From positions 26,791 to 90,790 of the forward strand of contig JANQFL010000094.1 of the NCBI GenBank assembly GCA_028277845.1: 64,000 nucleotides of DNA, read 5' to 3'. The stretch is from Sneathiellales bacterium (lineage in GTDB: Bacteria; Pseudomonadota; Alphaproteobacteria; JANQFL01). The stretch's first letter is position 1. Every line of letters starts with the position of its first letter. Both the position numbers and the translations under genes were made by a program. This document shows, one piece after another, positions 42,040-63,826 of the stretch. Below the pieces are notes generated by a model. The model was not told where the DNA came from, made no database searches, and saw nothing but the letters and a program-made list of their open reading frames with translations.

Positions 42040-42046
42040 AGAGGCC

Positions 42047-42610
42047 ATGCCGAAGCAGGCACACGACAGCAGGACCCGGATTCTCGATGCGGCCTACGAC
42101 CTGTTCTATCAGGAAGGCTTCGCCCGGGTCGGTGTCGACGAAATCGCCGACAGGGCCGGCTTCACCAAGCGCACGCTGTACTACCATTTCGACAGCAAGG
42201 ACGCCCTGCTGGCGGCGGTGCTGGACAACCGGGCCGGCCTGTCGCTCGCCCGAATCGAGCAATGGGCCAAAACCGGCGCCGCGACGACGGAGGAAGTGAT
42301 CGACAATCTGTTCACGGCCCTGAAGCGGTGGGTCGAAACGCCGCGCTGGAAGGGTTCGGGTTTCACCCGCCTGGCTATGGAACTGGCCGACCTGAAGGGC
42401 CATCCGGCCCGCACGGTCGCCCGCACCCACAAGGCCGCCATCGAAACCATGCTGACGGATATTCTGCGCGATACGGGCGCGGCGGAACCGGAAAATCTGG
42501 CGATCCAGATCGCCCTGATGTTCGAGGGCGCGCAGGTCCTGACCCTGATCCATGGCGACGTGTCCTACGTCGACCGGGCCCACGCCGCGGCCCGGCGTCT
42601 GGCGTCATGA
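42047..42610 (+). CDS. TetR/AcrR-family transcriptional regulator
   Basis: N-terminal helix-turn-helix RILDAAYDLFYQEGFARVGVDEIADRAGFTKRTLYYHF. The start was chosen at MPKQAHDS with a GGGAGAGG ribosome-binding site. The track ORF starts at 41969. Confidence 0.8.
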   Translation: MPKQAHDSRTRILDAAYDLFYQEGFARVGVDEIADRAGFTKRTLYYHFDSKDALLAAVLDNRAGLSLARIEQWAKTGAATTEEVIDNLFTALKRWVETPRWKGSGFTRLAMELADLKGHPARTVARTHKAAIETMLTDILRDTGAAEPENLAIQIALMFEGAQVLTLIHGDVSYVDRAHAAARRLAS

Positions 42611-43908
42611 CGGAGACCGCCACCCTGCCCCGGCCGGTTCGGCAGTCGGACGCCCTGTTGGCCGAGCGGGAACGCAAAGGCGTGCGCACTCTGACCTTCG
42701 TCCGGGCCGTCGCCCTCGCCATCATCGCCGTCAGCCATTGGGTGGTCGGCGCCAGCGTATTCGAAAAGGTGGCCGCCACGGCCCTGGCCGCCATCGCCGC
42801 CGTCGCCATCGTCGTGTCCGTGGTTCTGCTGGCCCGCAAACGCCATGTCGGCGCCGTCGGTGTCGCCGGCAGCCTCATCGATATCGCCATCCTCGCCGCG
42901 TTGCCGGTCATCTGGTACGTGTCCGTGGGCGGCCAGGCGGTCCCGCCGGCCTATATGCTGAAAACCCAGCTCTCCATCATGTCGCTGACCCTGGTGGCGT
43001 TGAACGCGCTGGCGCTGCGCCCGCTCTATCCCATCCTGGTCGCGGCCGGGGCCGTCGCCGTGCATGGTGCACTGATGGCCTACATCCTGGCCGACGAGCG
43101 TACCGTCGTCGGCGGCTATCTCGACGCCATCATGGGACCGGCCTTGAGCGCCGAATTCACCCTGACCGCCATGATGACGATCGGCCTGGTCGGGCTGATC
43201 ACCGGATACATGGCCTACACCGCCCGCCGCACGGTGGTGCAGGGCGTGCAGCTCGAGGTCTCCAACGCCCGGCTCGGCCGCTACTTCTCACCGGGCGTGG
43301 TCGCCCGCATCGCCGACGAGGGCGGCGGCGTCACGGGTCTGGGCGGCCGCACCCAGGACGTGGCGGTGATGTTCCTCGACATCCGCGGTTTCACGGCGAT
43401 GACCGAGAAACTGGCGCCGTCGGACGCCGTCGCCCTGCTGTCGCAGTACCACGAGCGCATGGTGCAGGAGATCTTCCGCTTCGGCGGCACCATCGACAAG
43501 TTCATCGGCGACGCCATCATGGTCACCTTCGGCACGCCCGACCCGGCAAACGACGATGCCGAACGGGCGGTGCGGGCCGGCCTGGCCATGAACCGGGCGC
43601 TCGCCGACCTCAATGCGGACCGGTCGGCAGCCGGCCAACCGGCGATCCGCCACGGTATCGGCATCCACTACGGGCCGGTCATCGCCGGCAATATCGGCAC
43701 GGAATCCCGGCTGGAATATACCGTCATCGGCGATACCGTGAACGTGGCCAGCCGGGTCGAGGACGCCTGCAAGGCGACCGGCGAGACATTCCTGATCTCG
43801 GACGCGGTCCAGGCCCGGATTCCCGCCGACATCGCCGTGCGCGCCCTGGCCGAACATCAGGTCAAGGGCCGGCAGGCCCCAGTCCGTCTGTTTGCCGTCG
43901 ACGGCTAA
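42607..43908 (+). CDS. Membrane-anchored class III adenylate cyclase (6 TM + cyclase homology domain)
   Basis: Start MTETATL overlaps the tetR stop (ATGA). Six hydrophobic helices. Cyclase-homology-domain motifs FLDIRGFT and KFIGDAIMVTFG, with the adenine-specifying Lys. The track ORF 41818..43908 is an upstream-extended artefact. Confidence 0.8.
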   Translation: MTETATLPRPVRQSDALLAERERKGVRTLTFVRAVALAIIAVSHWVVGASVFEKVAATALAAIAAVAIVVSVVLLARKRHVGAVGVAGSLIDIAILAALPVIWYVSVGGQAVPPAYMLKTQLSIMSLTLVALNALALRPLYPILVAAGAVAVHGALMAYILADERTVVGGYLDAIMGPALSAEFTLTAMMTIGLVGLITGYMAYTARRTVVQGVQLEVSNARLGRYFSPGVVARIADEGGGVTGLGGRTQDVAVMFLDIRGFTAMTEKLAPSDAVALLSQYHERMVQEIFRFGGTIDKFIGDAIMVTFGTPDPANDDAERAVRAGLAMNRALADLNADRSAAGQPAIRHGIGIHYGPVIAGNIGTESRLEYTVIGDTVNVASRVEDACKATGETFLISDAVQARIPADIAVRALAEHQVKGRQAPVRLFAVDG

Positions 43909-44015: not shown

Positions 44016-44774
44016 TTATATTAGTTTGTGTTCTTCCCGAAAGCGGTCGAACCATTGACGACTGGTGCCGTCCGCCATTTTTGCGACATCAGGTTTCACG
44101 CCATAGGCGGCTTCGCGATCCAGCCCAAGGAAATCCAGTACCGTGCCCAATGTCTTCTCAGGAGCGTCAGATAGCGCTTCGTAGGTAATGCGAAGTGGCT
44201 CGATCTGTTCGCGATCGAACCATGTATTCCAATCTCGATCGTAGGCCAGGAACCGCTCAAGTTGGTCATTTATCCTGTCCGCGTCATATGTCGGTGCCCG
44301 GGGGGAAGCCAGCCGTTCCAACTCCGTCCCGTCCGATGACACATGCCACAGCCCGGATTGGTCCGCTTTCACATACGAAATCGCTTGTTCCAGCTTGTCA
44401 CGCCGCGTCAAATGAATGAACGATACTCTTCCGAACACTGCGGCGAGACGCTGGGAATCTCTTGAAAGCGACGGCTGCAGGACAGCCAGTTTCTCGAGGA
44501 AAAAGTCGAAGCTGTGCCTTTGCAGTCTAAGGCCAAAGATACCGGTGTTTCCGCTCCCCTCGGCGATTGCCGCCCGGAAGACTCCATCCAGAAGCTCCCG
44601 TTCCGATCCCGTGGACGTGATCGGCAGGTCATAATAGCCGAGCCACGACTTCAACGACGGTTCATGAAAATACGAACCTGGATGTCCCGCCACACCCGTC
44701 TGAGAAAGCAGCCGGCACAGCAGCGTGCTGCCGCTGCGCGGTGACGTGCAAATGATATAAGAGTCGACGGCCAT
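44016..44774 (-). CDS. Stf0-type sulfotransferase (P-loop, PAPS-binding)
   Basis: ICTSPRSGSTLL 5'-PSB motif and LTRRD 3'-PB-like motif, 252 aa. The local GC is about 55-58% against about 68% in the flanks. Confidence 0.65.
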   Translation of the reverse strand: MAVDSYIICTSPRSGSTLLCRLLSQTGVAGHPGSYFHEPSLKSWLGYYDLPITSTGSERELLDGVFRAAIAEGSGNTGIFGLRLQRHSFDFFLEKLAVLQPSLSRDSQRLAAVFGRVSFIHLTRRDKLEQAISYVKADQSGLWHVSSDGTELERLASPRAPTYDADRINDQLERFLAYDRDWNTWFDREQIEPLRITYEALSDAPEKTLGTVLDFLGLDREAAYGVKPDVAKMADGTSRQWFDRFREEHKLI

Positions 44775-44871
44775 AAGGGGTAGGGTACAGCAATCGAAAC
44801 AGCACCGCGATGCGTTCCGAAACCGACGACTTCAACTCATTGAGCATGTCCTGATTTGCGGGACATACGAA

Positions 44872-45144
44872 CTAATCCACGTTTGCATTGTCCGGGTGCG
44901 TGTCGACGAAGTGTCTCAGGGTCATCTTCAGGCACAATACGCGCTCGATGTCCTTGCGCCGTTTCGCGTCGGCAATGTCGTCCAGGATCATGCGCTTGAT
45001 CATGCGCACGCCGTCGTCGGTGTGCACCAGATATTCGCCCAGTTCCAGCGCCGCCATCTCGGGGATGTGTTCGTGTTGCGCGATGGCGTCGATTTCGTCT
45101 TGGGTCAGTTCACACAGGCCGAGGCAGTCTTCGAACGTCAACAT
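44872..45144 (-). CDS. Hypothetical small acidic protein (90 aa)
   Basis: MLTFEDCLGLCELTQDEIDAIAQHEHIP... has no recognisable family. Confidence 0.45.
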   Translation of the reverse strand: MLTFEDCLGLCELTQDEIDAIAQHEHIPEMAALELGEYLVHTDDGVRMIKRMILDDIADAKRRKDIERVLCLKMTLRHFVDTHPDNANVD

Positions 45145-45236
45145 CGTGTCACCGCCTTTCCGCTCGTTTTCCTCCTGTCATCAGGCTGCCACGGAACGGT
45201 AACGTTTGCATTGACGGGGCTCAACGGCGGCGCCGA

Positions 45237-46097
45237 CTACAACCAGTCCTCGCGCCACGTGTCGTAGTCGGCCTGACAGGTGATGGCCTGCATCAACTCG
45301 GCCGATGCCTTGCCCGCGATGTCTTCCGGCTCGACGCCGTCGCGCAGCGCTTTCATGGTGGCGTAGACCGCCTGCACCGCCGCCGGGAAGGTCTGGTGGC
45401 CGCGCAGCAGGAAGCGGACGCCGTGGCCGGCGAGCCAGGCCGGGTCGCGCAGGTCCTTCGACCCGCCGCCCAGCAGCAGCGGCACGTTGACGTCCGCCGC
45501 GATGGTTTCAAGATCATCGCGGGATCGCACGCCGACCAGGAACAGGGCGTCGACGCCGGCGGCTTCGTAGGCCTTGCAGCGGGCGACGGCGTCTTCGACC
45601 GACGTCAGATGCGCGGCGGAGGTGCGGCCGGCGATGACCATGTCCGCGTCGCGCCGCGCGGCCAGGGCCGCCTTCATCTTGCCCACCCCTTCCTCGATGC
45701 CGAGCAGCCGCGCCTGGCCGCCCGAGCCGTAGGGCTGCGGCAGGTCGGTGTCCTCGATGGTCAGGCCGGCGATACCGGCGGCTTCCAGTTCCTCCACCGT
45801 GCGCATGACGTTCAGCGCGTTGCCGTAGCCGTGATCGGCATCGGCGAACAGCGGCAGCTCGGACGCCCGGCCCATGCGCATGGCCTGGTCGGCGAATTCG
45901 GACAGGGTCAGCACGATCAAGTCCGGCGCCGCCAATACGGCCAGCGAGGCCAGAGAACCGGCATACATGCCCATCTCGTAGCCCAAATGCTCGGCGATGC
46001 GCACCGAGGCCGGATCGTAGACCGAGGCCGGGTAGACACAGTGCTCGGTGCTGAGGATTTCACGGAAACGGCGGCGGCGGTCGGTCCAGCGCGGCAT
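45237..46097 (-). CDS. Isocitrate lyase/PEP mutase superfamily protein (oxaloacetate decarboxylase / methylisocitrate lyase-like)
   Basis: YDPASVRIAEHLGYEMGMYAGSL, FADADHGYGNA and TIEDT motifs, 286 aa. Confidence 0.7.
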   Translation of the reverse strand: MPRWTDRRRRFREILSTEHCVYPASVYDPASVRIAEHLGYEMGMYAGSLASLAVLAAPDLIVLTLSEFADQAMRMGRASELPLFADADHGYGNALNVMRTVEELEAAGIAGLTIEDTDLPQPYGSGGQARLLGIEEGVGKMKAALAARRDADMVIAGRTSAAHLTSVEDAVARCKAYEAAGVDALFLVGVRSRDDLETIAADVNVPLLLGGGSKDLRDPAWLAGHGVRFLLRGHQTFPAAVQAVYATMKALRDGVEPEDIAGKASAELMQAITCQADYDTWREDWL

Positions 46098-46691: not shown

Positions 46692-47528
46692 CTAAATCGC
46701 GCGGCGGCGGTCAACACTTATCGGAATATGGCGCGGCGCGGACGGAGACACGCGCCGGTACTGACCCGGCGTTACCCCGGCGAAGGCGCGGAATTCCCGG
46801 CTCAGATGGGCCTGGTCGGCATAACCTTCCGCCGCCGCGATATCCGCCCACGGGTTTTCCGGCGTTGCCTGGAACCGCTCCAGCACCCGGCCGAAACGGC
46901 GCAACCGGCAATAGGTCTTGGGTGTCAGGCCGGCGGCCTGTTCAAACGTACGCACCACATGGCGATGGCTGTAGCCGCTGTCCGCCACCACGGCACCGAC
47001 AGCGTCCCCCGCATCGAACCGGGCCAATGCCCGGGCGATCAGAGGGCTGACGCTAAGCTCCTCCCGCACCCGCGCTGCCAGGAAATCCTCTGTGATGGCC
47101 ATCCGTTCGCGGCATGACGGTGCCGACAAAAGCCGCCCGCGCAGTTCGGCCAAGTCGGTCGGGAGCCAGACATCCTCGAGAGGGGTGTGAGCACCCGCCA
47201 GGACAGCGGCGGGTGTGCCGGTCAACGGCTCGGCCGCCCCGGAGCGCAACATGACGCCGACCATCGGTTCGGGCGCGGAGAGAGCCTTCACATACGGCGC
47301 GGCACGGACACCGCCGATGATGGACATGCCCACCGTGGAGCCCACGGCGTCGCCGGCACCGGCAAACAGGCGCAACGGCGTGCCGCCGAGGCGGAACACC
47401 AAATGCATGGCGCCGGTGGGCAGGACCAGTTCACGCGCCGCCTGCTGGGCGTGACCGGTCCCGCCGCCTGCCCAGATCAGCGACACGAACGGCCGTAGTA
47501 TAGGTTTGGATGGGCGCCGCAGCATCAT
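46692..47528 (-). CDS. AraC-family transcriptional regulator
   Basis: C-terminal AraC helix-turn-helix (AGLTPKTYCRLRRF...LSREFRAFAGVTPGQYRR). The start was chosen at MMLRRPS. The track ORF begins at 47573. Confidence 0.7.
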   Translation of the reverse strand: MMLRRPSKPILRPFVSLIWAGGGTGHAQQAARELVLPTGAMHLVFRLGGTPLRLFAGAGDAVGSTVGMSIIGGVRAAPYVKALSAPEPMVGVMLRSGAAEPLTGTPAAVLAGAHTPLEDVWLPTDLAELRGRLLSAPSCRERMAITEDFLAARVREELSVSPLIARALARFDAGDAVGAVVADSGYSHRHVVRTFEQAAGLTPKTYCRLRRFGRVLERFQATPENPWADIAAAEGYADQAHLSREFRAFAGVTPGQYRRVSPSAPRHIPISVDRRRAI

Positions 47529-47627
47529 GCCCGGAACCTTCCGGCGTTGAACACCCGAGAAGCGTACAGGCAAAACCTCGACGTTTGAATGCGGATCCGA
47601 CCGGGGGTTCGGGGCGATGTCCGCCGC

Positions 47628-50815: not shown

Positions 50816-53800
50816 ATGACTTCGAGACTGTTTGCGTTCGCGGCCAGTGCGTTTTCCGGCGAGTACGATTGGTGGCAATGGCGGGCCGGCGCGGGTGAGT
50901 TCCATTCGCCGTTCGGTTGGCGGCCGGGCGGTGTGTCAGCCACAGTCGGCACCTTCGAAGTCGCCGGCAGCATGGCGGCCCTGCCGACGGATCCCCGCTT
51001 CTCCGATCAGTGGCATCTTCAGAACACCGGCCAGAACGGCGGCACGGCGGGTGTCGACATCAACGTCGTACCGGTCTGGGACGATTATACCGGCCAGGGC
51101 GTCACCATCGGTATCGTCGATTCCGGTGTGCAGTACACCCATCCGGACCTCGCGCCCAACTACAACACATCGATCGACTACGATGCCTGGGGGCGGGATG
51201 ACGACCCGGCGCCCAACAGCAGCGAAGATCACGCGACGGCGACCACCGGCACCGCGGCCGCCGCGGCCAATAACGGCACCGGCGTGGTCGGTGTCGCCCA
51301 TGGTGCCGAGGTGGCCGGCTTCCGCATGGACTTCGACAGCGGCACCCAGGGGCAGATCGCCGACAACATGGCCCGGCAGGTGGACGTCGACATCTCCAAC
51401 AACAGTTGGGGTTACGGCGGCTACTTTTTCGACGATTTCGACTCCAGCACTTTCGCCGCGTCGGCGGCCGGCATCGAAAACGCCGTCTCCGCGGGGCGCG
51501 GCGGCTTGGGCACGGTGTTCGTCTTCGCCGCCGGCAACGACGGCGACAGCGGCCAGGACGTCAATTATCACAGCTTCCAGAACTCGCCGTATACCATCGC
51601 CGTCGGCGCCGTCGACAATACGGGCGCCCGGGCCGATTTCAGCACGCCCGGCGCGGCACTGCTGGTCTCGGCCCCCGGTGTGGATATCGTCACCACGGAC
51701 AAGACCGGCAGCGGCGGGTACGTCTCCGGCGATTACGTCACCATCGACGGCACGTCGTTCTCGTCGCCCATCGTCGCGGGCACCGTGGCGCTCATGCTCG
51801 AAGCCAACCCGAACCTGGGTTACCGCGACGTCCAGGAAATCCTCGGCTATTCGGCCAGGTCGGACAAGCTGACCGGCTCGTCGTGGCAGATCAACGGCGC
51901 CGAAAACTGGAACGGGGGCGGCCTGCATGTCAGTCACGATTTCGGCTTCGGCCTGGTCGACGCCCACGCGGCGGTCCGGCTGGCCGAAACGTGGACCCTG
52001 CAGCACACCTACAGCAACCTCGCCTCCCATTCGACGGTCGCGCAGGTCAATCAGGCGATCAACGACTTCCAGCCCGTCTATTCGACCATCACCGTCGCGG
52101 ACACCGGGGCGCTGCAAATCGATCACGTCAGGGTCGACCTGGACATCGATCACACCTGGGTCGGCGACCTCCACATCACGCTGACGTCCCCCGACGGCAC
52201 CGAGAGCGTCCTGATCAACCGGCCGGGCAAGACGTCGTACAATCGATACGGCACCAGCCGGGACGACATCAAATTCGAGGTGACCAGCACCCAGTATTGG
52301 GGCGAAAACGGCGTCGGCGACTGGACCCTGAGAGTGAACGATGCCGTGTCCGGCGATCAGGGCACATTCAACGATTGGACCCTGACGCTGGAAGGCGATC
52401 CGGTCACCGACGATGACCTCTATGTCATCACCGACGAGTTCGTCGCCGCCGGCAATTCCGGTTTCACCATCGACGACAGCGCCGGAACCGATACGGTCAA
52501 CGCCGCCGCCGTGACGACGGATACGGTCCTCAATCTCACGCCCGGGCTCATGAGCAGTATCGCCAACGGCAGCTTCTATCTCGACCCGGCGACACTGATC
52601 GAAAACGCTTACACCGGCGACGGCAACGACCAGCTCATCGGCAACACCGCCGACAACGTCTTGGACGGCGGCCGGGGCGACGACAATCTGTTCGGCGGCC
52701 TCGGTAATGACGAACTGATCGGCGGCGCCGGCGACGACGTCATGGAAGGTGGCGAGGGAGAGGACGTCGCCGTTTTCTCGGGCAACCTCGCCGATTACGA
52801 CATCGTCGTCGACAACGCCATTATCACCGTCACCGATCTGAACGCCGGCGATCGCGATGACGGCACCAATACCCTGACCGGCATCGAGGGCGCCCAGTTC
52901 GCCGATCAATACGTCTCGTTCAATTTCGAGCCGCCGGACAATGTCCCACCGGTCGCGGTCGACGACGCATTGGCGGCCACTGAAGACACGGCCCTGACAT
53001 TCGGCGCCACGGATCTGCTGGCCAACGACAGCGATGCCAATGGCGACGGCCTGTCGCTGACATATTTCACCCAGCCGGCCCATGGCGCGTTGGCGGACAA
53101 TGGCGACGGCACGCTGACCTACACCCCGGACGCCGATTATTTCGGCAGCGATAACTTCACGTACACCGTATCGGACGGCTACGTCACCGACACCGGCACC
53201 GTGGCCATCACCGTCGCCCCGGTCAATGACCAGCCGGTCGCCGCGGACGACAGTACTTATACCCATGAAAATACGCCGCTGGTGATCGATACCTCCAGCC
53301 TGCTTGGCAACGACACCGATGTGGACGGTGACACACTCTCCATTACTGCCTTGTCACAGCCGGGTAATGGAAGCGTGGTCGACAACGGCGACGGCACGCT
53401 CACATACACACCAAACGCGGAATACTTCGGCGACGACAGTTTTACCTATACCGTTTCCGACGGTCAGGGGGCATCGGACACGGCCACCGTCGACGTCAGA
53501 GTCATATTCGTCAACAACCCGCCGGTCGCGGTTGATGACACCGCGACGACCGATGAAGACCAAACCATCACTATTCCGATCGCGACCCTGCTTGGAAACG
53601 ACAGCGACGCCGATGGGCATGCGCTTGAGATATATAGCCTCAGCAATCCGAACAACGGAAGCGTATACAAGAACACCTCCGCCGGTACCGTCGTATATCG
53701 CCCCAACCCGGACTTTAACGGCACGGACACATTCACATACAAAGCGTTTGACGGCTACAACACTAGCAATACAGCCACCGTTACCATAACAGTCAACCCA

Positions 53801-56800
53801 GTCAATGACGCACCGACGGCGAACGCCGACAGTATCGTCACCGACGAAGACACGCCGGTGGCTTTCTCATCGGTCGCCTTGCTGGCCAACGATACCGATG
53901 CCGAAGGAGACAACCTGATCATCGTCGGTGTCAGCGATGGATCCGACGGCACGGTCAGCGACAATGGTGACGGCACGTACACCTACACGCCGAACGCAGA
54001 TTTCGCTGGCCTTGACACGCTGACCTACAGCGTTGAAGACGGTCGGGGCGGCGTCAGCAACGGCACGATCACCGTCACGGTGAACAGTATCAATGATAAG
54101 CCGGTTGCCGTTGACGACAACCTAGTCACCGACGAGGACACCGCCTTTGTCATCGCCGCTGCTGATTTGCTGGCAAACGACAGTGATCCCGACGGCGATA
54201 CCTTGACGCTGACCAGCATCTCGACGGCAACCAATGGCCACCTCCATGACTTTGGCGACGGGACGTATAATTACCGGCCGAGCCAGGATTTTTACGGCAC
54301 CGATCAACTGACCTATACGGTCAGCGATAGTCAAGGCAACTCCGATACCGCCACGGTCACCATCACGGTCAATTCAGTTAACGACAGGCCGTATACCCAA
54401 GACGATGCCTTCGTCACCCATCAAAACGATCCGGTAACATTCACCAACGCCCAACTGCTCGCCAATGATATCGACCGGGAGGGTGACACGCTTGAAGTAA
54501 CCTATGTGCATCTGGTTGCACACGGAGAATTGGTTGACAACGGGGACGGCACATACACCTACACACCGGCCTATGGCTTTTCGGGAGAAGACTGGGCTTG
54601 GTACGGCATCGTCGACAGCAATGGAGGCACGAATTTCGACTCAGGCCGTGTTTCCTTCGATGTCCAATTGGATCAGAACAATATCGAACCGGTTGCCGGC
54701 GACGACTTCTTCGTCACCAACAAGGACGCGGCACTGGTCATCAGTGCTGCCGACTTGCTTTCCAATGATACGGATGCGGACGTCAATGACGCACTCACCG
54801 TTTGGAGCCACATGCAACCGAACAACGGTAGCGTGGTCGATAACGAGGACGGCACGTTCACGTACACCCCGAATGCGGGATTTGTCGGCACGGACCAGTT
54901 CGAATACTGGCTGTTTGACGGCAACCATGTCCTGAACGGCAAAAGCATTGGACGCGTCTTCGTTACAATCAATCCGGACAACATCACGCCGGTAGCTGGT
55001 GATGACACCGTCACCACGGACGAAGACACACCCATTATCATCGCAACAGCCGACCTGCTGGCCAATGATGGTGACGGCGATGGCGATGCGCTGTCCATCA
55101 CTACGATCTCACAAGGACAGAACGGCTCGCTGACGGACAATGGCGACGGCACGTTTACCTATACGCCAAACGCCCATTTCCATGGCTCCGACAACCTGAC
55201 TTACAACGTCACCGATGGCAAGGGTGGCAACGACACGGCAACGGTCGACATTACCGTCAACTCGGTCAACGATATTCCTGTCGCCGTCGACGATACATAC
55301 GGATCCGAAGAAGATACACCGCGAACCCTGTATGCCGCTCAATTCACGCATAATGATGTGGACGATGATGGTGATCCGCTGACGATCACGTTCTTATCAC
55401 AGGGCGAGCACGGCACCATTATCGACAATGGAGACGGCACATACACCTACACGCCCGACGCCGACTATTACGGACCGGAGACGTTCACCTACATCGTATC
55501 CGACGGCAATGGCGGCAGTGATACCGGCACGATGACCTACACTGTGTATGCAGTCAACGACTACCCGGTCGCCGTGGATGACACTTTCTCCACGTACAAG
55601 AATACCTCTCTGGGCTTCACTGCCAATGATCTGTTGGCCAACGACTACGACATCGAAGGCGACCCGCTGTCGATTGAACACATCTGGACACCTCCCAATG
55701 GGTCGATAGTCGACCATGGCGACGGAACCTATACATACACCCCCAATAATGGTTTTGTCGGAAACGACACCTTCCGCGTTCGTGTATCGGAGATCAACGA
55801 CGACCATTTAACCAACGACTCGTTCATCACCGTCGTTGTCACACCGGAACCTCCCGCGGTATCGGCAGCGGACGATACCGTCAGAACCGAAGAAGATTCA
55901 TCGGTCATCATCGCCGCGGCCGACCTGCTGACCAACGACGTCGATCTCGAGGGCGACGATTTATCGATCACCGATCTTACATCAACCAGCAATGGCACGC
56001 TGATCGACAATGGCAATGGCACCTACACCTACACGCCAATTGCCGATTTCAACGGCAGCGACAGCTTTACCTATACTGCCTCGGACGGTAATGGCAACAG
56101 CGACACCGCCACCGTCCGTATCACGATCGACCCCGTCAACGACGTACCGGTCGCCGCCGACGACGCGGTCACGACGGACGAAGACACGCCGCTGATCATG
56201 GCCGCCGCCACACTGACCGGCAACGACAGCGATGCCGACGGCGACGCGCTGACGATTACCGCGGTATCGGACGGGGCCAACGGCAGCGTCGCGCTGAACG
56301 GTGACGGTTCGGTGACATACACCCCCGACGCCAACTTCAACGGCAGCGACAGCTTCTCGTACACGGTGTCCGACGGCAATGGCGGCGCCGACACGGCCAC
56401 GGTCTCGGTCACAATCAACCCGGTCAACGACGCCCCCATCGTGCCGGACGTGTACCTGACGGTGGATGAAGACCAGTTCAACTACGTTTCGGCCGCCGAC
56501 CTGCTGGCGAACGTCACCGATATCGAAGGCGACGTGGACCCCGGCGACTGGCAGCCGATCACCTGGTCCGAACCGGCGCACGGCACCATATGGACGTCCA
56601 CCACAAGCGGCAGCGGGAGCGGAAGCGGCTACGGTGGTCAGTTTGATTACGGAGGCGTAGGCGGTATCGGCAGCTGGGACGGGATCGGCAGCGGGCTCGG
56701 ATTCGGCGGAAGCATAGGCGGAAGTACCGATGTCTTTATCCCGTCGGAAATCGTAAGTCTCGGTTTCGGACCGCGTGAACAAGACCAGGCGGACGCGGGC

Positions 56801-59800
56801 CAGGGGGAATTGCGGGCCATGGACGCGTCCCCCTTGTACATCAACTATTCGCCGGACCCGGATTACAACGGCACGGATCAATACACCTTCACGGTGACCG
56901 ACGCCAATGGCGCCTCGGGCAGCGGCACCGTGTACATCACCATCAATCCGGTCAACGACGCGCCGGTGGCGGCGGACGACACCGTGACCACCCAGCAGGG
57001 CGCGGCCGTGATCGCCACGCCGCTGGCCAACGACGGCGATGTCGACGGCGACGCGCTGAACATCAGCGGCTTCACCCAGGCGGCCAACGGCACCGTCGCC
57101 GACAACGGGGACGGCACGCTCACCTATACGCCCTACGCCGACTTCTTCGGGCTCGACAGTTTCACCTACACGATTTCCGACGGTCAGGGCGGCAGCGATA
57201 CCGCCACCGTCGGTGTCACCGTCGACGAGTTGCCGCCCAACACGGTCAGCTACGCCGACGAGGGCGCCGGCCTCACCGCCACATTGACCAGCGATGCGTT
57301 CGTCATGTCGACGAACGGTGTCGGCAATACCCCCCTCACCGGCGAGTTCCGGGAAGATGACCTGGTCGTCTGGGACGGTTCGACCCATAACCGTTTTCTC
57401 AACGCAGACGACATCGGCCTCGACGCCAACATCGATGCCCTGTTCGTCCGATCCAATGGCAATATCGTTTTCTCCACGTCAAGCTCCGGCAATCTGAACG
57501 GCATCGGCAATTTCGGCGACGAAGACCTGATCGAATGGGACGGCACGGCGTTTTCCATGTGGTTCGACGCCGGCGCCAACGGCATCGACACCGGCGAGGA
57601 CATCGACGCCGTTCATGTGCTCGAAAACGGCAATCTGATCCTGTCGACCACCGGCGGCGCCAGCGTCGACCAGAACGGCGGCGGCACCCTCGGTCTCGAG
57701 GACGGCGATCTGTTCGAATTCAACCCCGGCACCACCACGGTCGACGGACTGGCGGCGAAGACCGCCCGCCTGGTCTTCTCGGAGGACGATTTCCTCGGCA
57801 ACGAGGATATCGATGCCACCTCGCAATTGGCCGACGGCACCACGGTCCTTTCGACCATGGGTTCCGCCACCCTGCCCGTCTCGCAATCCTTCGCCGATGA
57901 AGACCTGGTGCAATGGGACGGCACGGCGGCCGGCAAGCTGTTCGACGGCGGCGGCAATGACCTCGAGACCTACACCGAAGACATCGACGCCGTGCACATG
58001 CTGGTCAACACCGGCGCGGCGGCGGGCGCCGATTACGCCGGCATCAACAATCTGATCGGCACGGCCTTCGACGATACCCTCGTCGGCCACGACGCCGAGA
58101 ACCGGCTGGAAGGCGGCGGCGGCGACGACATTCTGATCGGCGGCGGCGGCAACGACATTCTCGTCGGCGGCGCGGGGGCCGATATTCTCATCGGTGGCCT
58201 GGGGGCCGACACGTTCGTCTTCACCGCCGCCGACCTCGGCACCGGTCTCGACAAGATCTACCGCTACGACCAGACCGGCGTTCCCGTCGAGCAAAGCGAC
58301 AACCTGGATTTGAGCGGCCTCTTCCTGGGCGGGCCCGTGCCCGACCGGGATACGATCGACCAGTTCCTCAGATTTCAGGACGACGGCGACTGGGTGATCA
58401 TGCAGGTCGATACCGACGGCAGCGGCGGCTCCGCCGGCTTCCAGGACCTCGCCCATTTCACCGTCCGGCCGTTTGCCATTAGCGACCTGCCGGGTCTGAT
58501 GGACAACGGCAAGATCATCGTCGGCACGCCCAACGAAAACCCGGTGGCGGGGAACGACACGGCGGCGACCGACGAAGATACCCCGCTGATCATCGCCGCC
58601 GCCGATCTGCTGGCCAACGACAGCGACGGAGACGGCGACAGCCTGTCGGTCACGGCCATCTCGAACGGCGCCCACGGGAACCTGAGCGACAACGGCAACG
58701 GCACGTTCACCTATACGCCCGATGCCAACTACAACGGGGCCGACAGCTTCACCTACACGGTATCCGATGGCCGTGGTGGTAGCGATACCGGCACGGTTGA
58801 TATTTCGGTTGTGTCGGTCAACGACGCACCATCGGCAGAGAACGACATCCACTACACAGACGAAAACGTCCCTATAATCATAAGTATCGCCGATCTGCTG
58901 TCCAACGACTCGGACATCGACGGCGGGACTCTGTCTGTCGTCAGTTTCACACAAGGCGTTATTGGCAGTGTCGTCGACAATGGCGACGGCACGATAACCT
59001 ATACGCCCGAACCGAACCGATGGGGCGCCGACCGCTTCACCTACACCGTTTCGGACAATCAGGGCGGCAGCGATACGGCAGAGGTCATTGTCGACATCAC
59101 CATGGTCAATTATCGGCCGACTGCGGTTGACGACAGTGTTTCAACCGACGAGGACACGGGGATTGTCATTACCTACGCCAGCCTGCTTGCCAACGATTAC
59201 GATGTCGATGGCGATTCGCTGGGATTCCGTTGGTATGACCAGCCGCAGAACGGACATATCGTTGATGACCATTACGGGACCCTGACATACACGCCCGACG
59301 CCAACTTCTTCGGCACCGATACATTCGTCTACTACGCCAACGATGGCAGGGTGTTCAGTAATCCGGCCATCGTGACGGTGACCGTCAACCCCATCGACGA
59401 CGCGCCAGTCGCCACCGATGACAGTGTTTCCACCCTCGAAGACAGGCCATTGATCATCGGTGCCAATGTTTTGGCAAACGACATCGACGTCGACGGCGAC
59501 GGGTTAACCATCACCGGCGTGTCACAAGGAAACCATGGAACCGTTTCCAACAACGGTGATGGCACGTACACCTACACCCCGGATGCCGACTATGCCGGTC
59601 CGGACACAGTTACATACACGGTGTCAGATGGTCAGGGTGGCAGCGATATAGCCACTGTCGACATCACGTTGGATTCGGTTAATGACGAACCGGTCGCTGC
59701 AGACGACAACTTCTCAACGGACGAAGACCTTCCCTTGCTTGTCACCGTTGTCGATTTGTTGGCCAACGACAGTGATACAGAAGGCGACGGACTTAGTATT

Positions 59801-62800
59801 GCCGCGGTAACACAAGGCGTAAACGGCAGCGTTATCGACAATGGCGACGGCACATTCACCTACACGCCGAATGCCGACTTCCATGGATCCGACAGCTTCT
59901 CTTACACCGTTTCCGATGGTAATGGCGGCAGCGATACAGCGACCGTCGCCATCACAGTCAATCCGGTCAACGACGCGCCAGTGGCTGCAGACGACGCCTT
60001 GTGGCTCGACGAAGATACGACGCTGACCATCACTACGGCTGATTTAATCGGCAACGACGGCGACGCCGAAGGTGACAGCCTGACCGTAACGTCGGTATCC
60101 CAAGGCACGCATGGCAGCGTCACCAACAATGGCGACGGCACCTTCACATATAGCCCCGGCATCAATTACAACGGCGCCGACAGCCTGACCTACACGGTCT
60201 CCGACAGCAATGGTGGCGAAGCTACTGCAAGCATCTCCATCACCGTAGACCCTGTCAACGACGCGCCTGTAGCGGCGGATAATTCCTTCTTCTCGCAAGA
60301 GGACGTCCCGACTTCATTGTCGCTCGGCCTACTGCTTGCGGGAGCAACCGACGTTGACGGAGATAACTTGATACTCGCCGGGTATACGCAACCGGTCTAC
60401 GGCACCCTCACCGAAAATAGTCATGGCCATTTCGTCTATCTGACGAACGCCAATTTCTACGGCACCGACAGTTTCACTTACACCGTTTCTGACGGCAACG
60501 GTGGCAGCGACACCGCCACAATGACCGTCAATGTTCTCCCGGTAAACGACTGGCCAATTCCGACTGACGATGACGTGGTGGCTGACGAGGACACGCCGCT
60601 GATTATTGCTACGGCCGATCTTCTCGCCAATGACACAGATATCGAGGGTGACAGCCTTTCATTCGGTAGCCTCATTGAAGGCTCGTACGGAACCGTCGTC
60701 AACAATGGCGATGGCACGATCACGTATACGCCGGATTCCAACTTCAATGGTTTCGATTCGTTCCGATACTTTGTCCGCGATCACAGCAGCACACAGATCG
60801 GCACTGTTAATGTCACTGTCAATCCAGTCAACGATGCACCGACGGCAGAAATCGATTCGTTCTTAACGCCGACGAATACGTCTGCAATCATCAGCGCGGC
60901 GCAACTTGTTTCCAACGACACCGATATTGACGGTGACAGCCTGTCGGTGACCGGATACACGCAAGGATCCAATGGCAACATCACCGACAACGGGGACGGA
61001 ACGTTCACATATACCCCGGACACGGATTTCGTCGGCTTCGACACTTTCGATTACACCGTTTCGGATGGCAGTGACAGCAGCACGGCAACGGTCACCGTAA
61101 CTGTCGGGCTTGGCAACTTTGCGCCTGTTGCAAACGACGATTCATTTACGACCGACGAGGATTCGCCGTTCATCTTTACGAAAGCGGACTTGCTCGCCAA
61201 CGACGTCGACCTCAACGGCGACTTCCTAAATCACGCCGGTTTCCGTTCGCCTCTGCCCCGCGACTTTGATTTGGAATGGATTGAAGGCCACACTTGGTCC
61301 TTCGTCCCGGATGCCGATTTCGCCGGCGTCGCACACTTTTATTATCAAATCTATGACTCGTCCGGAGAATGGAATGAAGGCCAGGTCACCGTCACCGTCA
61401 ACCCGGTCAACGACGCACCCGTCGCTGTCGACGACATTGTCAAAGCTCAAATTGACACGCCACTCGTCATCGACGGTACAGATCTTGTTGCCAATGACAG
61501 CGATATTGACGGTGACGACCTGACGGTCGCCGGTTTCACACAAGCAGCCAACGGAAGTGTTACGGACAATGGCAACGGCACATTAACCTACACCGCAAAT
61601 ACCGGATTTAGCGGCACTGATGTCTTTACCTATTCTACCTCCGACGGTAACGGCGGCAGTGATGTCGCCACAGTCAATGTCCTAGTAAGTGCGATCGACG
61701 CAGTCGATGATAACGTTACTACAAACGAAGATGCCCCACTGGTCATCGCCTTTGCCGATCTACTGGCCAATGACGACGGGAATGGCAATGACCTGACGCT
61801 GACCGATTTCTCTCAAACTTCCAACGGCACCCTCACTGACAATGGCGACGAAACCTTCACCTACACGCCGGACGCCGATTACTACGGGTCCGACAACTTC
61901 ACCTACACCGTCTTTGACGGCAGCGATATCAGTTTCGCCACCGTCGCTGTCACCGTCGACCCAGTTAATGACGCGCCGGTTGCGGTGGACGCCCTTCTCA
62001 CCGCGATTGAAGATTCGACACGCACGATTCAGCCGTTCAGATTCTTACACAACGACACCGATCCCGATGGCGACAGCCTAACAATAGTCGACGTTACCCA
62101 AGCACAGCACGGCAGTGTCACCCTCAATGCTGACGGCACGGTCACATACATTTCGGATGCCGACTACAGCGGCCCCGACACCTTCACCTATACGATTTCG
62201 GATGGTGAGCTGACCTCCACTGCCAACGCTTTTGTTGACGTGCAGGCCCGCAATGATCGGCCGGTGGCAGCCGACGACAGTGTCACAACCAACGAAAACG
62301 CACCGGTTACCTTCAGTGCAGCAAGCCTGCTGGCCAACGATACCGATGTCGACGGCGACGCCTTAAGCATCATTGGGTTCAGTCAAGCCACGGGCGGATC
62401 GGTCAGCAATAATGGCGACGGCACGCTGACCTATACGCCGAACTCCGGCTTTACCGGGACTGACAGCTTCACTTACACCGTCTCCGACGGCAATGGCGGG
62501 TCGGATACGGCGACGGTTCATGTGACCGTCGGGCCGGCCGGCGGGCGGATCGATGACGAGACGTTCTCCTATGTCGATGCCAGTACCGGCGTCACCGCCA
62601 ATCTGGGCAGCGAGGCGTTTGTCTTCTCGACCTACCGCGGCGGTTCGGTCGACGGTGTCGGCGGCTTCGCCGACGAGGACCTGTTGCTGTGGGACGGTTC
62701 CGAATACAGCAAATTGCTGGACGGCGGATCGGTGGGGCTGAGTGCGTCGGATGAAAACATCGATGCCCTGTTCGTCCGCGCCAACGGCAATATCGTGTTC

Positions 62801-63826
62801 TCGACCACCGGCGCCGGCAGTGTGGCCGGTCTCGGCGCCTTCGCCGACGAGGACCTGATCGAATGGGACGGCACAAGCTTCTCCATGCTGTTCGACGGCA
62901 GCGAAAGTAGCCTGGGCAGCGCCGTGGATATCGACGGCGTGCATATTCTGGACAACGGCAACCTCGTTCTCTCCACCGTGTCCGATCACGCCCTGCCGGA
63001 CGGCGCCGGCGGTACGCTGGCCGCGCTGGATGGCGACCTGATCGAGTACAATCCGGGATCGGCCGCCGTCGACGGACTGGCGCCGCAAGCGGCGCGCATC
63101 GTCTTCGCCGAGGACACCTTCGTCAGCAGCGATGATATCGATGGTGCCTCGATGCTGTCCGACGACACCATGGTCATAACGGTCAAGGGCTCGGAAGGCC
63201 TGCCCGGCTTGGGTTCGTTCTACGACGAAGACCTGGTTTCCTGGGACGGCGTCACGGGCGATCTGTACTTCGACGGCAGCACCCACGGATTGTCGTCGTC
63301 GAGCGAAGACACCGACGCTGTGCACGTGCTCGATAACAGCGGCGAGGCCGTGGGCGACGACTTCTCCGGCCTCATCAATCTGATCGGTTCGGACCATGGC
63401 GACATTCTGGTCGGCAACGGCGCCGGCAATACCCTGACGGGCGGCGGCGGCGGCGACATCCTGATCGGCGGTCTCGGCGCGGACATTTTGGCCGGCGGCG
63501 CCGGCGGCGACACGCTGATCGGCGGGCTGAACGGCGATACCTACGCCTTTGCCGCCAGCGACGGCGTGGACACCGTCATCGGCTTCGACCGGGCCGAGGG
63601 CGACGTGCTCGACTTCCGCGACCTGTTCGACGGCGGCCCCGCCCCGGACGCCGCGACCGTCGGTCAATTCCTCGACGTCGCGGTGGGGGACGACAGCGCG
63701 ACCCTGCGTGTCGACATGGACGGCGGCGGCAACGGCTTTACCGATCTGGCCACTTTCGCCGGCGTGCCGTTCGGCAACGCGGATCTCGCGTCCATGCTGC
63801 AGGACGGGACGATCCTGGTGATCTGA
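50816..63826 (+). CDS. Giant (4336 aa) secreted multidomain protein: kexin-like S8 peptidase + P-domain, RTX repeats, about 28 VCBS/cadherin-like tandem repeats, two T1SS-type C-terminal modules
   Basis: A single uninterrupted frame with a GGAG ribosome-binding site 8 nt upstream. The N-terminus has DPRFSDQWHLQN, GIVDSG (Asp), DHATATTGTAAA (His) and GTSFSSP (Ser), followed by a proprotein-convertase P-domain (DLHITLTSPDGTES...WTLTLEG). Then come RTX GGxGxD nonapeptides and about 95-aa repeats with the ANDxDxDGDxL...DNGDGTxTYTPxxxFxGxDSFTYTVSDGxGGSDTATV...VNDAPVA pattern. The C-terminus resembles a type I secretion target domain. Confidence 0.85.
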   Translation: MTSRLFAFAASAFSGEYDWWQWRAGAGEFHSPFGWRPGGVSATVGTFEVAGSMAALPTDPRFSDQWHLQNTGQNGGTAGVDINVVPVWDDYTGQGVTIGIVDSGVQYTHPDLAPNYNTSIDYDAWGRDDDPAPNSSEDHATATTGTAAAAANNGTGVVGVAHGAEVAGFRMDFDSGTQGQIADNMARQVDVDISNNSWGYGGYFFDDFDSSTFAASAAGIENAVSAGRGGLGTVFVFAAGNDGDSGQDVNYHSFQNSPYTIAVGAVDNTGARADFSTPGAALLVSAPGVDIVTTDKTGSGGYVSGDYVTIDGTSFSSPIVAGTVALMLEANPNLGYRDVQEILGYSARSDKLTGSSWQINGAENWNGGGLHVSHDFGFGLVDAHAAVRLAETWTLQHTYSNLASHSTVAQVNQAINDFQPVYSTITVADTGALQIDHVRVDLDIDHTWVGDLHITLTSPDGTESVLINRPGKTSYNRYGTSRDDIKFEVTSTQYWGENGVGDWTLRVNDAVSGDQGTFNDWTLTLEGDPVTDDDLYVITDEFVAAGNSGFTIDDSAGTDTVNAAAVTTDTVLNLTPGLMSSIANGSFYLDPATLIENAYTGDGNDQLIGNTADNVLDGGRGDDNLFGGLGNDELIGGAGDDVMEGGEGEDVAVFSGNLADYDIVVDNAIITVTDLNAGDRDDGTNTLTGIEGAQFADQYVSFNFEPPDNVPPVAVDDALAATEDTALTFGATDLLANDSDANGDGLSLTYFTQPAHGALADNGDGTLTYTPDADYFGSDNFTYTVSDGYVTDTGTVAITVAPVNDQPVAADDSTYTHENTPLVIDTSSLLGNDTDVDGDTLSITALSQPGNGSVVDNGDGTLTYTPNAEYFGDDSFTYTVSDGQGASDTATVDVRVIFVNNPPVAVDDTATTDEDQTITIPIATLLGNDSDADGHALEIYSLSNPNNGSVYKNTSAGTVVYRPNPDFNGTDTFTYKAFDGYNTSNTATVTITVNPVNDAPTANADSIVTDEDTPVAFSSVALLANDTDAEGDNLIIVGVSDGSDGTVSDNGDGTYTYTPNADFAGLDTLTYSVEDGRGGVSNGTITVTVNSINDKPVAVDDNLVTDEDTAFVIAAADLLANDSDPDGDTLTLTSISTATNGHLHDFGDGTYNYRPSQDFYGTDQLTYTVSDSQGNSDTATVTITVNSVNDRPYTQDDAFVTHQNDPVTFTNAQLLANDIDREGDTLEVTYVHLVAHGELVDNGDGTYTYTPAYGFSGEDWAWYGIVDSNGGTNFDSGRVSFDVQLDQNNIEPVAGDDFFVTNKDAALVISAADLLSNDTDADVNDALTVWSHMQPNNGSVVDNEDGTFTYTPNAGFVGTDQFEYWLFDGNHVLNGKSIGRVFVTINPDNITPVAGDDTVTTDEDTPIIIATADLLANDGDGDGDALSITTISQGQNGSLTDNGDGTFTYTPNAHFHGSDNLTYNVTDGKGGNDTATVDITVNSVNDIPVAVDDTYGSEEDTPRTLYAAQFTHNDVDDDGDPLTITFLSQGEHGTIIDNGDGTYTYTPDADYYGPETFTYIVSDGNGGSDTGTMTYTVYAVNDYPVAVDDTFSTYKNTSLGFTANDLLANDYDIEGDPLSIEHIWTPPNGSIVDHGDGTYTYTPNNGFVGNDTFRVRVSEINDDHLTNDSFITVVVTPEPPAVSAADDTVRTEEDSSVIIAAADLLTNDVDLEGDDLSITDLTSTSNGTLIDNGNGTYTYTPIADFNGSDSFTYTASDGNGNSDTATVRITIDPVNDVPVAADDAVTTDEDTPLIMAAATLTGNDSDADGDALTITAVSDGANGSVALNGDGSVTYTPDANFNGSDSFSYTVSDGNGGADTATVSVTINPVNDAPIVPDVYLTVDEDQFNYVSAADLLANVTDIEGDVDPGDWQPITWSEPAHGTIWTSTTSGSGSGSGYGGQFDYGGVGGIGSWDGIGSGLGFGGSIGGSTDVFIPSEIVSLGFGPREQDQADAGQGELRAMDASPLYINYSPDPDYNGTDQYTFTVTDANGASGSGTVYITINPVNDAPVAADDTVTTQQGAAVIATPLANDGDVDGDALNISGFTQAANGTVADNGDGTLTYTPYADFFGLDSFTYTISDGQGGSDTATVGVTVDELPPNTVSYADEGAGLTATLTSDAFVMSTNGVGNTPLTGEFREDDLVVWDGSTHNRFLNADDIGLDANIDALFVRSNGNIVFSTSSSGNLNGIGNFGDEDLIEWDGTAFSMWFDAGANGIDTGEDIDAVHVLENGNLILSTTGGASVDQNGGGTLGLEDGDLFEFNPGTTTVDGLAAKTARLVFSEDDFLGNEDIDATSQLADGTTVLSTMGSATLPVSQSFADEDLVQWDGTAAGKLFDGGGNDLETYTEDIDAVHMLVNTGAAAGADYAGINNLIGTAFDDTLVGHDAENRLEGGGGDDILIGGGGNDILVGGAGADILIGGLGADTFVFTAADLGTGLDKIYRYDQTGVPVEQSDNLDLSGLFLGGPVPDRDTIDQFLRFQDDGDWVIMQVDTDGSGGSAGFQDLAHFTVRPFAISDLPGLMDNGKIIVGTPNENPVAGNDTAATDEDTPLIIAAADLLANDSDGDGDSLSVTAISNGAHGNLSDNGNGTFTYTPDANYNGADSFTYTVSDGRGGSDTGTVDISVVSVNDAPSAENDIHYTDENVPIIISIADLLSNDSDIDGGTLSVVSFTQGVIGSVVDNGDGTITYTPEPNRWGADRFTYTVSDNQGGSDTAEVIVDITMVNYRPTAVDDSVSTDEDTGIVITYASLLANDYDVDGDSLGFRWYDQPQNGHIVDDHYGTLTYTPDANFFGTDTFVYYANDGRVFSNPAIVTVTVNPIDDAPVATDDSVSTLEDRPLIIGANVLANDIDVDGDGLTITGVSQGNHGTVSNNGDGTYTYTPDADYAGPDTVTYTVSDGQGGSDIATVDITLDSVNDEPVAADDNFSTDEDLPLLVTVVDLLANDSDTEGDGLSIAAVTQGVNGSVIDNGDGTFTYTPNADFHGSDSFSYTVSDGNGGSDTATVAITVNPVNDAPVAADDALWLDEDTTLTITTADLIGNDGDAEGDSLTVTSVSQGTHGSVTNNGDGTFTYSPGINYNGADSLTYTVSDSNGGEATASISITVDPVNDAPVAADNSFFSQEDVPTSLSLGLLLAGATDVDGDNLILAGYTQPVYGTLTENSHGHFVYLTNANFYGTDSFTYTVSDGNGGSDTATMTVNVLPVNDWPIPTDDDVVADEDTPLIIATADLLANDTDIEGDSLSFGSLIEGSYGTVVNNGDGTITYTPDSNFNGFDSFRYFVRDHSSTQIGTVNVTVNPVNDAPTAEIDSFLTPTNTSAIISAAQLVSNDTDIDGDSLSVTGYTQGSNGNITDNGDGTFTYTPDTDFVGFDTFDYTVSDGSDSSTATVTVTVGLGNFAPVANDDSFTTDEDSPFIFTKADLLANDVDLNGDFLNHAGFRSPLPRDFDLEWIEGHTWSFVPDADFAGVAHFYYQIYDSSGEWNEGQVTVTVNPVNDAPVAVDDIVKAQIDTPLVIDGTDLVANDSDIDGDDLTVAGFTQAANGSVTDNGNGTLTYTANTGFSGTDVFTYSTSDGNGGSDVATVNVLVSAIDAVDDNVTTNEDAPLVIAFADLLANDDGNGNDLTLTDFSQTSNGTLTDNGDETFTYTPDADYYGSDNFTYTVFDGSDISFATVAVTVDPVNDAPVAVDALLTAIEDSTRTIQPFRFLHNDTDPDGDSLTIVDVTQAQHGSVTLNADGTVTYISDADYSGPDTFTYTISDGELTSTANAFVDVQARNDRPVAADDSVTTNENAPVTFSAASLLANDTDVDGDALSIIGFSQATGGSVSNNGDGTLTYTPNSGFTGTDSFTYTVSDGNGGSDTATVHVTVGPAGGRIDDETFSYVDASTGVTANLGSEAFVFSTYRGGSVDGVGGFADEDLLLWDGSEYSKLLDGGSVGLSASDENIDALFVRANGNIVFSTTGAGSVAGLGAFADEDLIEWDGTSFSMLFDGSESSLGSAVDIDGVHILDNGNLVLSTVSDHALPDGAGGTLAALDGDLIEYNPGSAAVDGLAPQAARIVFAEDTFVSSDDIDGASMLSDDTMVITVKGSEGLPGLGSFYDEDLVSWDGVTGDLYFDGSTHGLSSSSEDTDAVHVLDNSGEAVGDDFSGLINLIGSDHGDILVGNGAGNTLTGGGGGDILIGGLGADILAGGAGGDTLIGGLNGDTYAFAASDGVDTVIGFDRAEGDVLDFRDLFDGGPAPDAATVGQFLDVAVGDDSATLRVDMDGGGNGFTDLATFAGVPFGNADLASMLQDGTILVI
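52940..57240 (+). repeat. Tandem array 1 of about 14 VCBS/cadherin-like repeats of about 95 aa (protein-coding) inside the giant gene
   Basis: A recurrent (P)VAxDD...LLANDxDxDGDxL...VNDxP period is visible in the translation. The repeats have diverged at the DNA level. Confidence 0.8.
58535..62540 (+). repeat. Tandem array 2 of about 14 VCBS/cadherin-like repeats of about 95 aa inside the giant gene
   Basis: The same repeat family as array 1, with GC about 47-55%, clearly below the protease and RTX segments. Confidence 0.8.

Follow-up and report, generated by a model that had tools for sequence, protein, structure and literature searches.

We find that a Sneathiellales bacterium encodes, within a 64,000-nucleotide stretch of contig JANQFL010000094.1 (hereafter the window), a giant protein of 4,336 residues whose N-terminal head is, by sequence and by predicted structure, a subtilase of the kexin/furin fold, placed on the S8B rather than the S8A side of the family and with a P domain directly behind its catalytic domain. 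We consider it probable that this head works outside the cell as a protease that is activated by calcium and fixed to an adhesin-like stalk, in a composite resembling the AvxA protein of Avibacterium paragallinarum, and that it does not correspond to the proprotein convertases of eukaryotes.

An earlier note, made from the DNA letters alone, had proposed an intact kexin-type catalytic and P-domain module at this place, and the peptides that it quoted match the translation of positions 50990-52400 (+) exactly. The module (50981-52399, +) is confirmed by a pair of full-length Pfam matches, by furin and Kex2 as the best matches in the PDB, and by a structural model that fits both, with Foldseek in agreement. 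Pfam Peptidase_S8 is matched at residues 93-379 (E 2.5e-46) and P_proprotein (PF01483) at residues 435-525 (E 1.1e-24), in each case over the full length of the model (1-288 and 1-86, respectively). A phmmer search against all PDB sequences places furin (1p8j; 196 bits, E 1e-56) and Kex2 (189 bits) first, with query residues 4-474/477 covered, whereas the next matches, Aeromonas ASP (102 bits) and subtilisin BPN' (75 bits), are far weaker; the catalytic and P domains both align with Kex2 and furin from end to end. An AlphaFold2 model of the head, built from 50 homologues, reaches a mean predicted local distance difference test score (pLDDT) of 88 and a predicted template modelling (TM) score of 0.88, the P domain being modelled at a pLDDT above 90. 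When this model was compared with the PDB using Foldseek, the top 25 matches were all structures of furin or Kex2, with target-normalised TM scores of 0.85-0.89 and root-mean-square deviations of ~2.8-3.6 Å over both domains, followed by ASP and then by one-domain S8A enzymes. This agreement goes far beyond what chance would give, and generic S8A subtilases without a P domain are not the best matches of the head.

The mouse furin sequence was rebuilt from the PDB alignment, with its numbering checked at known residues, and aligned once with the window protein plus 120 homologues and, in a separate run, with 80 genomic relatives; the furin 295-314 stretch aligns without gaps and is anchored at both flanks. 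No substitution affects the catalytic triad or the oxyanion Asn: window residues D102, H139, S314 and N241 correspond to furin D153, H194, S368 and N295, and furin positions H194, T196 and S368 are invariant in all 120 homologues. The calcium-binding residues, the conservation of which the earlier note had left to be checked, are predicted to be kept in part: under published definitions of the furin sites (PMC12649860), the side-chain ligands of site I (window D59, D111 and N153, furin D115, D162 and N208) and of site III (window D123, D128 and D130, furin D174, D179 and D181) appear to be retained, whereas site II, which lies under S1, probably keeps only one ligand of three, D258 (window D206), with D301 and E331 replaced by Q247 and T277, respectively.

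The specificity pocket has changed further. From the acidic subsite set of furin (D154, D191, E236, D258, D264 and D306), which belongs to the basic-specificity pocket of furin and Kex2 (Table 1 of PMC2820236), only D258 survives: D306 at the base of S1 has become H252, D154 beside the catalytic Asp has become S103, the S4 acids E236 and D264 have given way to small or hydrophobic residues (A/I and T/A, respectively), and the D191 loop is shortened. The His at furin position 306 is shared by 115 of the 120 close homologues and by 112 of 135 wider representatives, the latter being the newly retrieved sequences among the 150 best of the exhaustive search described below. That the loss of the pocket in the window clade is real, and not alignment noise, is indicated by relatives in which the pocket persists, as ~64 Marine Group II archaeal sequences and several from Planctomycetota and Verrucomicrobiota (38-46% identity) keep the full furin signature (D154, E236, D258, D/E264, D301, D306, Y308 and E331).

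These changes speak against a genuine dibasic-specific proprotein convertase, the substrate of which would be a different precursor cut after KR or RR. Such an enzyme is what the nearest solved relatives, furin and Kex2, would suggest in both sequence and fold, the S1 residue D258 is retained, and the carrier itself is without KR/RR sites; yet all five of the remaining key acidic features are altered, calcium site II beneath S1 has lost most of its ligands, and the persistence of the signature in distant archaeal, planctomycete and verrucomicrobial relatives points to a clade-specific loss. A convertase-style function, towards which the earlier note leaned, thus finds no support, and because the acidic specificity residues are replaced there is no basis for expecting dibasic cleavage; we regard this explanation as very unlikely. 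The lack of dibasic sites does little to rescue it. The note had correctly observed that the giant protein is essentially free of them (0 KR/RR in 4,336 residues), but its conclusion that the substrate is probably another protein does not follow, since Lys and Arg together make up only 1.9% of the residues and the composition predicts no more than 1.6 sites (P(0) ~0.2), so that their absence is uninformative about the substrate. Dibasic-site depletion was dropped as evidence on this question.

Two of the substitutions might also be read as decay. The replacement of D154 by Ser beside the catalytic Asp, and the change from HGT to HAT beside the catalytic His (A140, furin position 195), are what an inactive pseudo-protease, kept as a binding or scaffold module, could be expected to display. 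However, the HAT form occurs in 7 of 121 sequences (the window protein and 6 of the 120 homologues), and in all seven it is accompanied by a residue other than Asp (S, T or G) at position 154, a pair conserved in the six closest relatives, at 55-65% identity. As Ala195 always pairs with non-Asp154, a change of subsite is favoured over decay, and judging from the alignment the pair looks like a conserved, presumably functional reshaping of S2. Since, in addition, the triad and oxyanion Asn show no substitution and the active site lies in a confidently modelled region, a pseudo-protease is the least likely of the explanations that we have weighed.

By sequence and model alike, the protein lacks the prodomain on which eukaryotic convertases depend. 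The leader (residues 1-52) has no Pfam match to a prodomain at E<=1 and is modelled at a pLDDT of ~30, as expected of a disordered segment; several homologues start at the catalytic domain itself ('P-x-D-P-x-F'), and others carry unrelated short leaders. A kexin-like protease without a propeptide has a precedent in ASP, which is described as propeptide-deficient in a title cited in PMC5638518.

The head belongs to a protein of ~450 kDa with a pI of ~4.05 and 13.6% Asp, the features of which are summarised in Table 1. An AGGAG Shine-Dalgarno motif lies 6 nt upstream of the ATG, and a second, independent assembly (a Logan contig of 13.9 kb) encodes an identical protein. Its sequence bears the hallmarks of a type I secretion substrate, namely a predicted C-terminal target domain, RTX repeats and an acidic pI. 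TIGR03661 matches two stretches of the protein, the terminal one at 37.9 bits against a cutoff of 17.6, and HemolysinCabind matches four. Within the RTX block that follows the P domain, HemolysinCabind is matched at E 1.2e-13 and Peptidase_M10_C at E 7.9e-6 (26.2 bits, cutoff 20.7); an RTX block in this position is a family-wide feature, with PF08548/PF00353 found in most homologues. The RTX-toxin model NF033943 reaches only 48 bits with the giant protein, against a cutoff of 1000.

Table 1 Features of the giant protein and of its gene, with positions in the window
Feature	Positions	Strand	Basis or remarks
Giant open reading frame (ORF), 4,336 aa	50816..63826	+	Single ORF; predicted type I secretion substrate with protease head
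N-terminal leader, aa 1-52	50816..50971	+	Disordered; without signal peptide or prodomain family match
Kexin/furin-type subtilase catalytic domain, aa 56-396	50981..52003	+	Pfam, PDB phmmer, Foldseek
Triad codon D102	51119-51121	+	Furin alignment
Triad codon H139	51230-51232	+	Furin alignment
Triad codon S314	51755-51757	+	Furin alignment
Oxyanion N241 codon	51536-51538	+	Furin alignment
Changed pocket residue S103	51122-51124	+	
Changed pocket residue A140	51233-51235	+	
Changed pocket residue Q247	51554-51556	+	
Changed pocket residue H252	51569-51571	+	
Changed pocket residue T277	51644-51646	+	
P domain (beta-sandwich), aa 397-528	52004..52399	+	GDL and WTL motifs kept; Pfam, furin alignment, model, Foldseek
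RTX nonapeptide beta-roll block, aa 550-698	52463..52909	+	Serralysin C-terminal-domain-like; HemolysinCabind, Peptidase_M10_C
First array, ~14 tandem-95 / Cadherin_5 / Big_9 repeats, aa 711-2140	52946..57235	+	
Internal secretion cassette, aa 2142-2569	57239..58522	+	Propeller-like domain, RTX, T1SS_VCA0849-type target domain
Second array, ~14 tandem-95 / Cadherin_5 / Big_9 repeats, aa 2575-3905	58538..62530	+	
C-terminal cassette, aa 3915-4336	62558..63826	+	Propeller-like domain, RTX repeats, type I target domain
Uncharacterised ~270-aa domain, two copies	57239-58060 and 62558-63388	+	4-5 repeats of ~55 aa
RTX 27-nt repeats in C-terminal cassette	63398-63525		TRF
Terminal type I secretion target domain, aa 4252-4332	63569-63811	+	TIGR03661

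Each of the two repeat arrays is capped by a cassette of ~430 residues in which an all-beta repeat domain is followed by RTX nonapeptides and then by a TIGR03661 target domain. The internal (57239-58522) and C-terminal (62558-63823) cassettes are 50% identical over 431 residues (E 2e-115), and while the terminal one stops at the stop codon, the internal copy continues straight into the next tandem-95 repeat. This arrangement suggests, at the level of sequence, that two secretion-competent units, in effect two type I secretion system (T1SS) substrates, were fused or duplicated in frame long ago. TRF detects only the 27-nt RTX repeats and no long-period array, so the tandem-95 units are divergent at the DNA level. 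Collapse or chimerism of the repeats in the assembly was considered and is countered both by this divergence of the 95-residue units and by the identical ORF in the independent assembly. A low-complexity loop of ~80 residues, rich in Gly and Ser (SGSGSGSGYGGQFDYGGVGGIGSWDGIGSGLGFGGSIGG...; 56588-56830, residues ~1925-2005), breaks up one repeat of the first array, at a position where RTX adhesins sometimes hold inserted ligand-binding domains.

The ~270-residue domain that opens both cassettes has the repeat consensus NGNIxLST...ATLGG..F.D.DL.EYD..T.TA.L.FD....E.IDA. It has no Pfam match, and only 26 homologues were retrieved from 5.8 billion proteins; these are mostly stand-alone hypothetical proteins of 250-340 residues, three of them with PEP-CTERM (PF07589). 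Its AlphaFold2 model (pLDDT 84.7) is all-beta, and as Foldseek returns only loose matches to beta-propellers (TM <=0.41), no function can be assigned to the domain.

The occurrence of the head in a bacterium, which the earlier note had presented as its point of interest, is not remarkable in itself, as the module is common in bacteria and archaea, with thousands of homologues and with kexin-like bacterial enzymes already published (ASP, AvxA). A word-indexed search yielded at least 2,397 homologues at E<=1e-10, and an exhaustive search of 1.84 billion representatives yielded 5,276 at E<=1e-30 and 28,032 at E<=1e-10. P domains on prokaryotic subtilases had been catalogued by 2008 (PMC2605481), and many of the homologues are already annotated as 'subtilisin-like proprotein convertase family protein'. 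The top homologues are typically proteins of 700-850 residues in which S8, P and RTX parts (with or without Peptidase_M10_C) follow one another, from hosts including Rhodospirillaceae, Minwuia, Roseomonas, Leptolyngbya and other cyanobacteria. Most relatives have this S8, P and RTX layout at ~0.7-1.3 thousand residues, and since they stand alone, they are probably secreted proteases in their own right.

Giants comparable to the window protein form a minority. The 135 wider representatives have a median length of 1,098 residues, 35 being at least 1,500 and 15 at least 2,000 residues long, and the head is N-terminal in 10 of the latter 15. Two giants that were scanned (4,354 and 4,848 residues) share the layout of S8, P, RTX and Cadherin_5/Big_9 parts, as do further proteins of 6,126 and 3,710 residues and shorter ones in metagenome-assembled genomes (MAGs) of Hyphomicrobiales (L002, 1,804 residues) and Sphingomonadales (L004, 2,269 residues). 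The best GTDB relative, from a Hyphomicrobiales MAG, is 58% identical.

Some relatives depart from this pattern. The loci with the full furin signature are L005, L007 and L010-L081 (Poseidoniales / Marine Group II), with proteins of ~1,150 residues, and L018, L033 and L060 (Tepidisphaerales, Verrucomicrobiota and Planctomycetaceae), with proteins of other lengths; their heads are ~40% identical to furin and, on their pocket residues, are better candidates for a prokaryotic basic-residue-specific convertase than is the window protein. Four Planctomycetota MAGs (L006, L008, L009 and L035) contain ORFs of at least 3,200-4,040 codons that extend beyond the fetched loci and place a kexin-like head first, without RTX motifs and without D258 or D306, and these may represent a separate line of protease-headed giants. 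Finally, several representatives from the exhaustive search contain multiple stretches matching the module, with 10 in P0122 (3,332 residues), 6 in P0168 (5,423 residues) and 3 in P0136 (4,495 residues). P0168 has its best-matching copy at the very C-terminus, and the aligned copy has other residues at several positions of the triad. Proteins of this kind may consist of degenerate or pseudo-protease modules in series.

Under the reading of a tethered protease, the giant protein would be synthesised without a signal peptide or prodomain and would stay unfolded and inactive in the low-calcium cytoplasm, a state in which no inhibitory prodomain would be needed. An unlinked system consisting of an ATP-binding cassette (ABC) transporter, a membrane fusion protein (MFP) and TolC would export it C-terminus first by means of its C-terminal RTX repeats and target domain, and extracellular calcium would then bring about folding domain by domain. 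Because export would proceed from the C-terminus and folding would be progressive, the head would emerge and fold last, its folding starting from calcium sites I and III and from the RTX beta-roll next to it. The product would be a calcium-dependent endoprotease on a stalk of ~28 beta-sandwich repeats with two propeller-like putative binding domains, and it could cleave neighbouring extracellular proteins, its own carrier, or both, at non-dibasic sites.

Several points weigh against this scheme. The N-terminus of a canonical RTX adhesin stays at the cell surface, which would put the protease beside the cell and not at the far end of the stalk. The retained D258 (window D206) could still confer some preference for a basic P1 residue, and the unusual HAT beside the catalytic His could lower activity. 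Moreover, a search of ~45 annotated ORFs in the 64 kb window, picked by third-position GC content, brought up only housekeeping genes and none for the ABC, MFP or TolC components of a T1SS, so that secretion is inferred from the substrate alone. The same ORFs include no LapG/LapD, acyltransferase/activator or BD genes.

The absence of LapG and LapD bears on a further possibility, that the two-domain head acts mainly as a structural plug, an N-terminal retention module that anchors the adhesin in an outer-membrane channel in the manner of LapA or MpIBP, with proteolysis secondary. The head does sit where RTX adhesins have their retention module (bioRxiv 10.1101/2025.09.30.679566). Retention modules, however, fold without calcium (same source), whereas the head appears to keep two of the furin calcium sites, the invariance of H194, T196 and S368 argues for selection on catalysis, and the short relatives, which stand alone, clearly have no adhesin to anchor. 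We therefore hold a plug to be highly unlikely, and rank it, like the convertase and the pseudo-enzyme, as less likely than a tethered protease.

Self-cleavage stands closer to the tethered protease, with which it is compatible. Here, the head would mainly cut its own 450 kDa carrier after export, releasing the stalk or parting the two halves that end in cassettes. AvxA, the N-terminal head of which is likewise of the S8 and P type, is a T1SS-exported protein of ~250 kDa that is processed to a 95 kDa RTX fragment according to PMC6950323; the carrier in the window is built as two units, each ending in a full secretion cassette, and heads of this kind are covalently joined to giants in many lineages. 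On the other hand, no cleavage site can be predicted, the cut in AvxA is not attributed to its S8 head in the accessible part of PMC6950323, and most members of the family are short stand-alone proteases with nothing to process. By analogy with AvxA, self-processing remains a live option for the window protein, though we think it rather doubtful as the main role of the head. A more elaborate version, which we consider improbable, would combine these elements, in that a prodomain-free, calcium-gated head would cut its own carrier, the internal cassette (residues 2142-2569) would mark the boundary between the units, and the clade with His in place of Asp306 would constitute an unrecognised specificity class.

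Comparison with known systems places the protein between several of them. With furin and Kex2 (MEROPS S8B) it shares the two-domain fold at ~33% identity over ~470 residues, the triad with its oxyanion Asn, the P-domain GDL motif and, judging from the ligand residues, calcium sites I and III; it differs in having no prodomain, signal peptide or membrane anchor, in the replacement of the S1, S2 and S4 acids, in the probable near loss of calcium site II, and in a head that is predicted to be exported by a type I route within a repeat protein of 4,336 residues. The closest enzymes are the stand-alone S8, P and RTX proteases of Alphaproteobacteria and cyanobacteria, the heads of which are 50-65% identical, share His306 and the lack of a prodomain, and are likewise followed directly by a Peptidase_M10_C-like RTX block; whereas these proteins usually have 700-850 residues and end soon after that block, the window protein has ~3,600 extra residues between the block and its secretion signal. 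ASP of Aeromonas sobria is another bacterial subtilase that has a P domain and lacks a propeptide, and in structure it ranks next after furin and Kex2, but it scores 102 bits against 196 for furin, has 23-24% identity, and is a stand-alone enzyme of 600 residues. It also takes another secretion route and requires the external chaperone ORF2. The calcium-dependent subtilase PrcA of Anabaena is a prokaryotic member of the kexin family and is reported to fold with the help of a propeptide, which the window clade lacks; it is cyanobacterial and annotated as a 'precursor', and cyanobacterial homologues of the window head are abundant.

As regards the carrier, RTX adhesins such as LapA and MpIBP are likewise giant and acidic, with Ig/cadherin-like extenders in tandem, a beta-roll at the C-terminus and a signal for T1SS export. 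The N-terminus differs, consisting of a disordered leader of 52 residues and the protease head without a match to a retention-module family, and the window protein has in addition a second, internal secretion cassette and no adjacent LapG/LapD or T1SS genes. AvxA is alike in the fusion of an N-terminal S8 and P head to a large RTX moiety, a likeness of architecture as described in PMC6950323, which also presents its C-terminal part as a pore-forming RTX cytotoxin, activated by AvxC and encoded in an avxCABD operon. The carrier in the window instead comprises 28 tandem-95 repeats and two secretion cassettes, with no activator or T1SS genes adjacent.

The genomic neighbourhood is that of an ordinary chromosome, with a nuo operon, tig-clpP-clpX-lon, RNase J, aminotransferases, SDRs (short-chain dehydrogenases/reductases), an AraC regulator and a nucleotide cyclase. 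The cyclase is an adenylate/guanylate cyclase of 696 residues (41818-43908) and the AraC-family regulator lies at 46692-47573; between these positions, a Stf0-type sulfotransferase (E 5e-88) adjoins a PEP-mutase-family protein (44016-46097, -). An antisense ORF of 776 codons (50936-53266, -) overlaps the protease head and is probably a shadow ORF, since it failed the third-position GC screen in this high-GC window.

Nothing in these results is surprising enough to alter current views, and the databases already contain many annotated members of the family. In the literature searched, a look for protease-headed RTX adhesins brought up nothing other than AvxA, and we found no discussion of the points of architecture and pocket that we regard as modestly new, namely the 28 repeats with their twin cassettes and propeller-like domain, the clade-wide replacement of Asp306 by His, and the Ser154/Ala195 pair of a subclade. 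The inference of a bacterial dibasic convertase, attractive but wrong, is corrected, and it is the Marine Group II archaea and some Planctomycetota that stand out as prokaryotes keeping a full furin-like pocket. If the tethered protease is real, the furin/kexin scaffold would work without a prodomain, with calcium-triggered folding coupled to secretion replacing the roles of chaperone and inhibitor; a few pocket substitutions, among them the change from Asp306 to His in more than 80% of relatives, would suffice to rewire the specificity of a convertase; and giant RTX repeat proteins would be seen to carry a tethered enzyme besides their known cargo. Should the head in addition cut its own carrier at the internal cassette, one gene would give rise to two separately working T1SS-type adhesin/propeller units and a free protease, and the His306 clade would be derived from archaeal or planctomycete ancestors with the full furin signature.

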